Virus record (IMG/VR): IMGVR_UViG_2703718806_000010
Location: 1-18,717 of that record
From: a virus
Taxonomy: Duplodnaviria > Heunggongvirae > Uroviricota > Caudoviricetes
Strand: one strand, 5' to 3'
DNA: 18,717 bases
Shown in pieces: positions 15,001 to 18,000 of the stretch. Made by a program: the position numbers. The stretch's first letter is position 1, and every line of letters begins with the position of its first letter.

Positions 15001-18000
15001 TAATTATATCCATATGAGTTGCACTTTAATGTCATTCCATTTTGTAACACAATTGTTTTTCCGTAGTCACAACCTTCAAAATCGCCATCAACTTTTGAGA
15101 CTATACTGACTGTATAACCAATAAGCTCTTGATATTCATAATAAGTATTGTATGCGTTTGAACTTAATGGTAATAGAAATAAAGAAATCATTAATATTAA
15201 TTTTTTCATATAACATCCTTTTAGTTTCTTTATAAAAGATAAGCTATATCCACGTAACTCAATTATGTCAACATCAGTATCAAATAATGTTGACACACCA
15301 CACATTCTGTCGGATACTCTGCTTCAGGTGCTCAAAACACCTTAGCAAGTAGCGGTTACCGCGCCCGACAGACATGCGGTTTTTTTGTGTCCAGTCTTCT
15401 TGGTTTATGACCGGGCGTGCGGCTAATACAACACCAGCAATGGGAATATGCCCGCCGACTACTTGCGGTTTTGAGCGCCCGGTCACCCTCTCAAAAGGGG
15501 TAAATCAAAATATCAAGTAGGACACAAAGCATGAAAACCATCTCCGTGGAGTCCCTCTCCATAATTTCATTTAGTAATATACCTGTGGTGACTACAGAGC
15601 TTCTTGCCAGCTTATATGGCACAGAACCAGATTACATCCGAAAAAACTTCAATCGGAATTCTGGACGATTTGTTATCGGTAAGCACTACTTTTTACTTGA
15701 GAATGAGGAGTTGCGCGAATTTAAGCACAGCATGTCTTTAAGACCTTCTGTGAAAATCGCCCGTAACGTTCTCTCCCTCATCCTCTGGACAGAACGCGGC
15801 GCAGCCCGTCACGCAAAAATGCTCGAAACCGATCAGGCTTGACGTTATAGGTCGTTACTTGTAGATTTATCTTTGTGAGGCGTCAGAACCTCTCTAAAGC
15901 GGACAAAACCAACCCCGTCAGTGTTGGATTTTTTATGCCTGTTATTCAGTGATAGCACAATGTGCTGTCACATCCCCGAACAATGTCGGGAGGGCGACGA
16001 ATACAACACCCGTAAGGGGAATAAGTCCGCGGTTCTTTAGGCCGTTCTGAACCTCCCGACACCACTATCAGAGGTGGTAATTTCAGAAAAAGCTAAAGGA
16101 GGTCGTTATGACCATGCAACTCGCTGTAGAATCCCTCGTCGTCGTTACTTACTCTAACGTCCCTGTAATAACAACAGGGTTATTGGCAAATCTATACAAA
16201 ACTGAAGAAAAACATATACGGCAGAACTTCAAACGTAATGAATGTCGTTTCATTGCAGGAAAACACTTCTTTAAAGTAAGTGGCTGTGAACTTGATAGTT
16301 TGCGAACCTCTCAAAGAGGTTTACAAATTTCCCCAAAAACCCGCTCCCTCATCCTCTGGACAGAACGCGGCGCTGCCCGTCATGCAAAAATGCTCGAAAC
16401 CGATCAGGCGTGGGAAGTGTTCGAAAAACTGGAAGACTGCTATTTCAGCCAGGGAAAAACAACACAAACCGAACAGCAGCCGCAGATTCAGCCGCAATTC
16501 ACAGCCGAGGAAATCATCCTCCTTTGCTACATGCAGTTCTGGATGGAAAAAGCCCAGGACCTCAGCAAACACCTGTATCCCATCATGAAAGAGCTGAACT
16601 CATCATACACGAACAAGCTGTATGACATTGCGTTTGAGACTATCTACATGGTGACGAAGAACAAGGAAGCACTACTGCGGGAGGCGGCACAGCTTGACCA
16701 GTCAAGTTTCGTTGTCCAGCGGGCCAGACCAATGCTGAAAAGCCTGCGGGCAAGACAATTTGAATTCTGAAACCAAAGGAGCTTCGGCTCCTTTTTTGTT
16801 GGGAAAATCCAGTGAGAGGGAATAATGAACCAGACTATCTTCCTCCGAAGTAAGCAGCAGCAACAATTCGCCATTAACGCAATCCTTGCAACAACTCTCG
16901 ATAAAGACAAACCCGTTACGATCCGCATCACCGATTACAAGCGGAATCTCGATCAAAATGCCAAATTTCACGCGATGGTCGCTGATATCTCCCGACAGGT
17001 TCAGTGGTGCGGCAGATGGCTAAAACCAGAACAGTGGAAAGTTTTGTTAATCAGTGGTCATGCCGTGGCGACAAAACAGGAAGCTGATGTTTTGCCAGGT
17101 CTTGAAGGTGAATACGTCAATATCCGCGAAAGCAGTGCGCAGATGAGCGTGAAGCGTATGGCAAGCCTGATTGAGTACACAACTTCCTGGGCTGTGGAGC
17201 AGGGTGTCAGATTTACCGACAGGAGGTATGAATGAGACGACAGCGACGAAGCATTACCGATATAGTCTGTGAAAACTGCAATTACCTTCCAACGAAACGC
17301 TCCCGAAATAAACCCAGGCCAATCCCCAACGAATCTGATGTAAAAACCTTCAATTATACGTCTCACCTGTGGGATGTCCGGTGGCTCAGACGTCGTGCAA
17401 GATTTAATAGTCACTCCGGATAGTTCAATGTACGAGGAATAAGATGATGGCAAACCTACGCAAAGAAGCGCGTGGCAGAGAATGTCAGGTACGGATTTAC
17501 GGCGTATGCAATGGCAATCCTGAAACTACAGTTTTGGCGCATTACCGAATGGCTGGAATTTGCGGAAGGGGAATGAAGCCAGATGACCTGTTGGCTGCAT
17601 GGGCCTGTAGTGACTGCCATAATGAAATCGATCGCCGTACTCGCATTCTCGACAACAACGACGCCAGACTTTACCGCCTGGAAGGCGTGATCAGGACGCA
17701 GGCGATACTGCTGAAGGAGGGGAAAATTAAGTCATGAATGAATATGAGTTTGTGCTTCCCTGGCCGCCGACGGTGAATACCTACTGGCGAAGACGGGGAA
17801 GCCAGTACTACATCAGCGATAAAGGCCAGAAATACCGAAAAGACGTACAGCAAATCATCCGGCAACTCAGATTAGACATTTTCACTAAATCACGACTTCG
17901 CATCACAATTATTGCTGAACCACCAGATTCCCGTCGTCGCGACCTCGATAACATCCTGAAAGGTTTACTCGACTCTCTTATCTACGCCGGATTTGCGGAA

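Follow-up and report, generated by a model that had tools for sequence, protein, structure and literature searches.

The 18,717-nucleotide stretch studied here (positions 1 to 18,717 of IMG/VR record IMGVR_UViG_2703718806_000010, a virus of the Caudoviricetes; hereafter the window) raises the question of whether a lambdoid prophage controls its antirepressor-type genes through a small antisense RNA, as the c4 RNA does in the immI operon of phages P1 and P7, and, if so, to which RNA family this regulator belongs and which gene it still gates. The question arises at a locus that we call Module A, where an initial annotation had read a promoter, short boxes, a leader terminator, and a small structured RNA in front of an ORF6N antirepressor-like gene as a P1 immI-style switch. 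Direct reading of the sequence found every element of that list in its place, the promoter being recovered by a scan as well, and we add to the list a leader hairpin that holds the first box (Table 1). Altogether, the comparisons reported below make it very probable that Module A is a c4-type (P1 immI-like) antisense-RNA cassette whose RNA comes from the sRNA-Xcc1 family and not from the C4 family of P1.

The RNA element of Module A is a confident member of the sRNA-Xcc1 family (Rfam RF02221) and not of the C4 family. A scan of the window with all Rfam models returned two matches, both to sRNA-Xcc1 and both over the full model; the one in Module A scores 79.3 bits (15409-15492, model positions 1-87 of 87, E = 2e-13) for a gathering score of 53 bits. 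Its predicted fold has an energy of -31 kcal/mol (z score of -2.2), and the single-sequence folds of both window RNAs retain the closing stem and hairpin 3. In a 68-sequence alignment, compensatory changes are found in 12 of the 15 consensus pairs together with many G-U pairs, the latter pointing to a strand-specific RNA fold and not to a DNA palindrome. A double-stranded palindrome or protein-binding site was therefore rejected, the stems being rich in strand-specific G-U pairs and the flanks sharing only boxes of 6 to 8 nucleotides (nt). A tRNA or transfer-messenger RNA gene as the source of the acceptor-like stem was rejected as well, ARAGORN finding none in the window.

How this RNA would recognize its targets can be read from its 3' region, where CGACTACTTGCGGTTTTGAG (15456-15475) is the reverse complement of both upstream boxes (a1 and b1, in the leader) and of both downstream boxes (a2 and b2, between the RNA and the gene). 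This complementarity is real and beyond chance: the best two-plus-two matches between the 3' region of the RNA and its flanks sum to 31 nt, compared to a mean of 20.2 and a maximum of 27 in dinucleotide shuffles of the flanks, none of 2,000 reaching the observed value. Counted over the plus strand of all 18.7 kb, there are three copies of CAAGTAG (7989, 15346, and 15514) and four of CTCAAAA. The 20-nt stretch had been described as unpaired, which is right for the b' loop and the a' linker, both exposed, but not for the part that belongs to the stem of hairpin 3 (GCCG/CGGT). On the target side, the gene begins 44 nt past the end of the RNA, and 10 nt separate the end of b2 from its ATG (15531). 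The segment carrying a2, b2, and the ribosome-binding site (15488-15545) is unusually unstructured in folding (z score of +1.7), as expected of an accessible target and ribosome-binding site.

The same arrangement is found in the P1 record, which annotates the P1c4 promoter at 48195-48223, a1 at 48255-48261, b1 at 48269-48276, c4 at 48343-48419 (77 nt), a2 at 48423-48429, b2 at 48452-48459, and icd from 48470. P1 and Module A share the order promoter, a1 in a hairpin loop, b1, weak terminator, RNA, a2, and b2 at the ribosome-binding site. The starts of a1 and b1 are 14 nt apart in both, the RNA measures 77 nt in P1 and 79 nt in Module A, a2 begins 4 nt after c4 and 3 nt after the Module A RNA, and the gap between b2 and the ATG is equal. 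Both RNAs have their 5' end after TTATG (TTATG/G(A)) and their 3' end at ACC; in both, the final hairpin displays b' in its loop, and the linker leading into the 3' strand of the closing stem carries a'. In sequence, only the terminator of the Module A leader resembles the P1 leader, its 3' half being nearly the same (GCGGTATTTTTGTGTCC in P1, GCGGTTTTTTTGTGTCC in the window). The closing stem differs (17 bp in P1, 9 bp in Module A), as does the RNA body, with a GC-rich first hairpin in P1 and a two-tier hairpin with the invariant core AAUACAAyACC...GGGAAU in Module A. Moreover, unlike P1, Module A has no icd-like open reading frame (ORF), and the ribosome-binding site under b2 belongs to the antirepressor-type gene; this gene is of the ORF6N type and not P1 Ant1/2, and no C1-type operator was identified in Module A. 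The immI-style layout nevertheless holds good, carried by the spacing in the P1 record, by the covariation of the boxes, and by the linkage to antirepressors.

To place these boxes in the context of the family, 120 loci were gathered from viral contigs with the conserved RNA core as the pattern, representing 92 distinct RNAs. The hairpin-3 loop is hypervariable (62 distinct loops), and the linker takes about a dozen forms. For the 62 loci with distinct loops, the reverse complement of each loop (at least 7 nt) was sought in the flanks of its own locus and in those of the other loci. Upstream, it was present in 58% of cognate versus 4.4% of noncognate cases, and downstream in 56% versus 4.0%. 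The upstream b-box lies ~60 to 120 nt before the RNA, with the a-box 9 to 16 nt ahead of it; the downstream b-box lies ~25 to 45 nt past the RNA, the a-box again preceding. The downstream b-box ends 7 to 12 nt (median, 9) ahead of the start codon, that is, on the Shine-Dalgarno sequence, in 47 of 51 loci. The first downstream ORF begins ~40 to 50 nt past the RNA in nearly all loci, and an icd-like ORF between RNA and gene was found in none of the family loci. Among 58 downstream ORFs, the Pfam domains were KilA-N (15), ORF6N (9), AntA (8), Phage_pRha (7), Bro-N (7), and P22_AR_N (6), with P22_AR_C in 15; N-terminal domains typical of phage antirepressor-type proteins are thus carried by ~52 of the 58 genes.

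The leaders were compared in the same way. A promoter-like site with at least 9 of 12 consensus matches, its -10 box ending 11 to 16 nt before a1, was found in 20 of 41 loci versus 2 of 41 shuffled controls (several loci failing the scan have a stored flank that is too short). The stem of the a1 hairpin varies across loci with its pairing kept (GGTG/CACC, GAGG/CCTC, and GTGG/CCAC), and the terminator form CCGCnCCCGAnAG..GCGG-T7 recurs in 19 of the 41. Most family RNAs end in an NCC tail, which is ACC in Module A. In the leaders of loci L003 to L102 we also observed a nearly invariant CGG directly after b1 and a conserved CCCGnCAG in the terminator loop, both kept across subfamilies with different stems and neither explained by RNA pairing. 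A general antiterminator pairing just after b1 was considered and rejected, GCGG/CCGC being present in Module A and P1 but not consistently traceable across subfamilies.

The second sRNA-Xcc1 match of the window lies in a further module (Module B) with its own promoter, leader, boxes, and gene. Its box complementarity is reached by 5 of 2,000 shuffles, and its gene goes under the name "anti-repressor Ant" in the records of Shigella phage 75/02 Stx and of Stx2a phages (Stx, Shiga toxin). All six boxes differ between Modules A and B while complementarity is preserved within each, making the two a natural compensatory pair. Together with the cognate-box covariation of the family, this pair is the strongest evidence obtainable without experiments that the RNA would pair with its boxes, and the view that it works like c4 is well supported by comparison. 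On the box sequences only, heteroimmunity between the two modules is predicted. We found no statement in the searchable literature that sRNA-Xcc1 RNAs are c4-like with cognate a/b boxes, and the literature naming both sRNA-Xcc1 and C4 treats these as separate entities.

Table 1. Features of Modules A and B in the window (positions are those of the 18,717-nt stretch)
Feature	Position	Strand	Sequence, evidence, or remark
Inverted repeat TGTCAACAT / ATGTTGACA (candidate operator)	15266-15295		9-nt arms, 100% complementary, 12 nt apart; right arm over the Module A -35 box
Module A promoter TTGACA-N17-GATACT	15290-15318	+	-35 at 15290-15295, -10 at 15313-15318; consensus scan, 10/12 matches
Module A leader hairpin AGGTG/CACCT	15326-15342	+	Presents a1 in a 7-nt loop; seen in sequence and fold
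Module A box a1 CTCAAAAC	15331-15338	+	Read in sequence
Module A box b1 GCAAGTAG	15345-15352	+	Complementary to the hairpin-3 loop of the Module A RNA
Module A leader intrinsic terminator	15358-15386	+	ACCGC (15358-15362)/GCGGT (15376-15380), then T7 (15380-15386); read in sequence; corresponds to the leader terminator of P1 and to that of IsrK
Module A c4-like RNA (~79 nt, Rfam sRNA-Xcc1 family)	15409-15487	+	Covariance-model match and fold
Module A RNA closing stem (9 bp) and tail	15409-15417 with 15476-15484; tail 15485-15487	+	GACCGGGCG with CGCCCGGTC; ACC tail
Module A RNA core		+	AAUACAACACC...GGGAAU, within the RNA
Module A RNA hairpin 3	15454-15469	+	GCCG (15454-15457) pairs with CGGT (15466-15469); family consensus structure
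Module A RNA b' CTACTTGC	15459-15466	+	8-nt loop of hairpin 3 plus one stem base
Module A RNA a' GTTTTGAG	15468-15475	+	Linker from hairpin 3 to closing stem, plus two stem bases
Module A box a2 CTCAAAA	15490-15496	+	3 nt past the RNA
Module A box b2 CAAGTAG	15514-15520	+	Overlaps Shine-Dalgarno AGGA (15519-15522)
Module A box pairs			a'/b' TTTTGAG / CTACTTG; flanks a/b CTCAAAA / CAAGTAG
Module A truncated ORF6N gene (103 amino acids)	15531-15842	+	N-terminal domain only; Pfam ORF6N, E = 1e-19
Module B promoter TTGACG-N17-TAGATT	15839-15867	+	Consensus scan, 9/12 matches
Module B box a1 TCAGAAC	15883-15889	+	In hairpin loop
Module B box b1 CTAAAG	15894-15899	+	
Module B leader terminator	15909-15934	+	CCAAC/GTTGG plus T6
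Module B c4-like RNA	15985-16063	+	Tail ACC(A); RF02221, 75.7 bits at 15985-16068; -29.5 kcal/mol, z score of -2.0
Module B RNA b' CTTTAG	16035-16040	+	
Module B RNA a' TTCTGA	16045-16050	+	
Module B box a2 TCAGAA	16083-16088	+	Alternative TCAGA at 16069-16073
Module B box b2 CTAAAG	16093-16098	+	Runs into Shine-Dalgarno GGAGG (16098-16102)
Module B box pairs			a'/b' TTCTGA / CTTTAG; flanks a/b TCAGAA / CTAAAG
Module B gene, full-length antirepressor type (220 amino acids)	16108-16770	+	Pfam ORF6N, E = 6.5e-20; P22_AR_C, E = 3.2e-08
Terminator behind the Module B gene	16775-16794	+	

Several points weigh against a c4-type cassette and have to be set beside this evidence. The check that the initial annotation had suggested, a search with the Rfam C4 and c4-a1b1 models, failed: C4 (RF01695), c4-a1b1 (RF03163), and isrK (RF01394) gave no match at E <= 10 in 15150-16250. 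This negative result is not a failure of sensitivity, since the same three models score 68.8, 51, and 35 bits on phage P1 and 69, 48, and 79 bits on Gifsy-1. RF02221 in turn gives no match on P1 c4, and Rfam clan CL00128 includes C4 and c4-a1b1, with no clan listed for sRNA-Xcc1. Common descent of the two families is thus not demonstrated by covariance models (we built none of our own to join them, the reciprocal Rfam searches already being without cross-recognition); the likeness of the leader terminators, together with the identical layout, suggests shared ancestry. The functional side of the proposal, from transcription through RNase P processing to repression and the part played by a1/b1, is by analogy only. 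Promoter-like sites in the region are not above shuffles (3 found versus 3.1 expected), and the Module A promoter call therefore relies on the conserved position across the family. Duplex energies, tried as a measure of A/B orthogonality, discriminate at three of the four target sites but not at the upstream site of Module B, where the predicted value is -16.5 kcal/mol for the Module A RNA versus -15.0 kcal/mol for the Module B RNA, and this measure was rejected. An sRNA-Xcc1 member of Escherichia coli O157:H7 EDL933 is abundant in RNA sequencing with very low ribosome coverage (PMC5331693); an assignment of this RNA to one of the modules was rejected, the coordinates not fitting the EDL933 assembly (a hok/gef locus there), and the expression value serves as family-level evidence only. 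Finally, as the gene gated by Module A is a truncated remnant, its RNA has lost a full-length target in cis, and the cassette may be decaying.

With these points in mind, we propose a model that follows P1, in which RNase P processing of c4 and the translation block at a2/b2 are established. The sigma-70 promoter of Module A would start a leader whose hairpin loop exposes a1 and which continues with b1 and a weak intrinsic terminator. Most transcripts would stop at this terminator, and those reading through would carry the ~79-nt RNA. Its 9-bp stem and ACC tail mimic the acceptor end of a tRNA, so that RNase P would be expected to cut the 5' end and release a stable RNA; the sequence prerequisites are present in Module A, namely the acceptor-like 9-bp stem, the ACC tail, and the same TTATG/G context as in annotated P1 c4. 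The exposed b' and a' would then pair with b2 and a2 on the mRNA, and because b2 overlaps the Shine-Dalgarno sequence, this pairing would block translation of the downstream gene. For a1 and b1 we see two options: the RNA could act on the nascent leader and promote termination, in a negative feedback such as that of the P4 CI RNA, or the terminated leader could titrate the RNA as a decoy and so switch on the gene, in the manner of short IsrK in Gifsy-1.

The first of these options can be extended to an alternative that we regard as possible, if tentative, in which the RNA acts mainly by transcription termination in the manner of the P4 CI and N15 CA RNAs, pairing at a1/b1 forcing the leader terminator and the gene being silent for lack of transcription. 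In Module A, b1 lies only 5 nt upstream of the terminator hairpin. The minimum-energy fold of the free leader ties up one arm of the terminator (GCGG-UUA-CCGC in Module A; b1 with the 3' arm in Module B). With a1 and b1 blocked, the lowest-energy structure of either window leader is instead the terminator. P1 differs in that its terminator forms in both conditions and needs no alternative fold; the support from the window is here a thermodynamic prediction. The P4 CI (seqA/seqC) and N15 CA RNAs are described as small processed c4 relatives that pair with repeats flanking their own gene and act by premature termination, and N15 CA controls an antirepressor operon (PMC3632133; PMC4825925). Pairing at a2/b2 could moreover uncouple translation and bring in Rho, and termination may coexist with a translational block. 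In P1, silencing of ant is reportedly in part transcriptional, Biere et al. being said to have described in 1992 an action of Rho after the block of icd translation. Nevertheless, the strict placement of b2 on the Shine-Dalgarno sequence throughout the family is a prediction of the translational block that pure termination does not need, antiterminator pairing is not consistent across subfamilies, and, unlike what is described for P4 CI and N15 CA, the position of b2 in Module A points to a block of translation. We retain the c4-type block at b2 as the preferred mechanism.

Which gene would this mechanism still control? The initial annotation had foreseen an RNA-gated antirepressor giving the prophage a second route to induction. 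This probably does not hold for Module A, whose gene encodes 103 of 224 residues and is marked as a pseudogene by RefSeq; if such a route exists anywhere, it would be through Module B. The Module A ORF is 98% identical to residues 1-103 of a 224-amino-acid homolog that follows an identical RNA elsewhere. By Pfam it carries ORF6N only, with no C-terminal effector domain (P22_AR_C or ORF6C), and the RefSeq annotation of E. coli 2013C-3181 lists this same ORF as a pseudogene "missing C-terminus," with no RNA gene at the locus. The ORF breaks off exactly at the Module B promoter (TTGACG, starting at 15839), and its last 88 nt (15754-15841) are repeated directly at 16325-16412 within the Module B gene, with 86% identity; the truncation and the repeat look like what recombination between two cassettes would leave behind. 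The functional RNA-gated antirepressor switch of this prophage is probably Module B, with Module A gating a fragment.

Module A could then be an inert remnant, in which recombination cut the gene and left the promoter, leader, and RNA decaying without present function, an explanation that we consider doubtful. It agrees with the truncation at the Module B promoter, with the RefSeq pseudogene, and with the rarity of the tandem A+B arrangement, found in 1 of 5,426 complete E. coli genomes (2013C-3181). However, the six boxes, the stems, and the promoter are all intact, which a recent origin explains equally well; the leader-RNA-target segment is 98 to 99% identical to copies before full-length genes in 152 E. 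coli genomes; and the pattern of an orphan plus a complete module, seen in seven of seven tandem pairs, suggests tolerance or even selection. By orphan we mean a module that has lost its gene, keeps its promoter, leader, and RNA, and stands in front of a complete module. Such tandem pairs make up 7 of 121 loci (L010, L046, L075, L092, L106, L116, and the window). In all seven, the upstream gene is truncated (94 to 103 amino acids) or missing, the downstream gene is full-length (207 to 310 amino acids), and the two RNAs differ in the b' loop, several RNA types being involved. Tandem pairs may be recombination scars or retained orphan immunity RNAs. In Xylella, five sRNA-Xcc1 copies lie ~385 nt apart (PMC12189769).

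The A-type leader-RNA-target segment is present, with 90 to 99% identity, in 152 of the 5,426 complete E. coli genomes, including O157:H7 strains, and precedes a full-length gene in the listed records; in 2013C-3181, the sole genome with the A+B arrangement, no second A-type target was found. There, the pair of truncated A and B (L125, 1586620-1588083) is 98.9% identical to that of the window and stands in another prophage context, with a Rha-family gene ahead of it and a cell-division inhibitor gene, gamL, and recT behind; the different context suggests that the pair moves as a unit between prophage positions. An attractive but unlikely hypothesis is that sRNA-Xcc1 represents a second immI-type lineage of immunity RNAs, more diverse than C4 and with a reprogrammable loop, whose orphans, Module A among them, would silence in trans the antirepressors of other phages, incoming or coresident, in the way that c4 sets immI immunity in P1. 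If true, Module A would be directed against the A-type ant cassette of these 152 genomes.

The nearest experimentally studied system is isrK-STnc1160 ("orf45")-anrP of Gifsy-1 (Hershko-Shalev et al., 2016; PMC4825925). It is lambdoid as well, with a leader RNA and its terminator followed by an ~80-nt processed RNA and then directly, with no icd, by an antirepressor-like gene; anrP has a b2 box, ATCACCGGAGG, on its Shine-Dalgarno sequence and an N terminus that, judged by eye, is ORF6N-like (MTTQISVETLSP...). The cassette of the window is real but ordinary. A C4 RNA directly before an antirepressor-like gene is already documented in Gifsy-1. For the lambdoid layout acting directly on the gene, as initially claimed, the position of the gene and the lack of an icd ORF stand, but the layout is not new. 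The two systems differ in that the Gifsy-1 RNAs are canonical members of isrK, c4-a1b1, and C4, which the window RNAs are not, and in that the Gifsy-1 cassette lies downstream of Q and the window cassette upstream of ninB. In the published model, the C4 region is a small ORF and IsrK an activator, no C4-type repression being described: short IsrK supplied in trans raises anrP translation ~140-fold, an orf45-SPA fusion protein was detected, STnc1160 appears on Northern blots as a stable processed RNA of ~80 nt, and IsrK is complementary to the "orf45" region (PMC4825925). In our scan of Gifsy-1 (L124, 6078-6349, minus strand), the Rfam C4 match of 69 bits lies exactly over orf45/STnc1160, between isrK and anrP, and the activation by IsrK could be a relief of C4-type repression.

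Transferred to the window, the published Gifsy-1 model would make the short terminated leader (~15325-15386), the counterpart of IsrK, an activator in trans, and the RNA region a piece of mRNA with a coupled small upstream ORF. The IsrK and orf45-SPA results from Gifsy-1 favor such an account, as does the family-wide conservation of a leader with a1, b1, and terminator. So does an analogous 48-amino-acid ORF (15374-15520), placed like orf45 and overlapping the leader terminator, the whole Module A RNA, and b2, which bears on how the Gifsy-1 model is read. This ORF is probably not a gene, as no Shine-Dalgarno sequence is visible upstream; its ATG (15374) lies inside the terminator hairpin, and it stops 11 nt before the ATG of the gene, with no overlap. 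Moreover, the stems covary as RNA with G-U pairs, and the Gifsy-1 region itself scores as C4. We hold activation by the leader to be quite improbable as a replacement for the c4-type cassette, with which it is compatible in the form of a decoy.

That the RNA acts in trans on host or unlinked genes, its position being incidental, as proposed for Xanthomonas sRNA-Xcc1 and the Xylella homologs, is very improbable: although the family is named as a trans-acting, HrpG/HrpX-controlled small RNA, hundreds of targets have been predicted for the Xylella homologs (PMC12189769), and Module A, without a full-length cis target, could have a remaining function only in trans, a conserved host target cannot explain a hypervariable loop that tracks its own flanking boxes in ~60 specificities, an antirepressor-type gene lies 40 to 50 nt downstream in ~52 of 58 loci, and in Xanthomonas integron cassettes, too, the RNA sits directly upstream of a gene, that of the toxin SymE (symE; preprint). 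The searchable sRNA-Xcc1 literature, which deals with a trans-acting, virulence-linked small RNA, does not describe flanking boxes or antirepressor linkage. In APSE phages, an sRNA-Xcc1 copy lies upstream of an ORF6N protein, as in the window, and C4-family RNAs adjoin Bro-N genes (PMC7313666).

A c4-type cassette also invites comparison with the sar RNA of P22, which blocks translation of the antirepressor gene ant in a lambdoid phage (PMC12197685), as we propose for the Module A RNA, and the C-terminal domain of the Module B protein is of the P22 antirepressor type. However, sar is a cis-antisense RNA, made from the opposite strand across the ribosome-binding site of ant, whereas the window RNA is encoded on the same strand, upstream, and would act through two short boxes. 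Two further RNAs were considered and set aside: the "microRNA-size" 24B_1 of the Stx phage Phi24B, with a reported role in the control of an antirepressor (d_ant), belongs to a different locus, in the lom region with its proposed target downstream of R, and the Pas small RNAs of pathogenic E. coli are unrelated, their preprint dealing with neither antirepressors nor Xcc1. In the first 55 kb of phage 933W, no member of either RNA family was found.

The window as a whole takes in the early region and the left arm of a lambdoid prophage resembling Stx phages, with genes for an integrase, an ExoVIII-like protein, an S24-peptidase repressor (8593-9363), a cro-like protein, cII, and replication, both modules preceding ninB, ybcO, and rusA. 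Its nearest counterparts among phage records are Stx-converting phages, along with Shigella phages 75/02 Stx and POCJ13. Upstream of Module A, the minus strand carries an AT-rich ORF for a 115-amino-acid HTH_3 protein (14582-14929) and a second AT-rich ORF, listed at 14892-15305 with a probable start near 15209 and without a Pfam match; these ORFs (14582-15209), divergent from Module A, could form an accessory cassette, e.g., a toxin-antitoxin or defense pair. The inverted repeat over the -35 box of Module A is a candidate operator. It was rejected as an operator of the prophage repressor, the motif being absent from the cI/cro intergenic region and its frequency in the window no higher than chance.

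For the prophage of the window, our study adds two unannotated small-RNA genes, with their leaders and targets, before antirepressor-type genes. Beyond this prophage, the comparison gives sRNA-Xcc1, treated in the searchable literature as a virulence-linked trans-acting small RNA, a concrete and testable mechanism, in which many phages would have a c4-style two-box antisense switch placed directly on an antirepressor-type gene. An antirepressor can set off prophage induction without cleavage of the repressor. As this type of cassette is common in Stx phages, the RNA could, therefore, influence spontaneous induction and the cross talk between coresident prophages.

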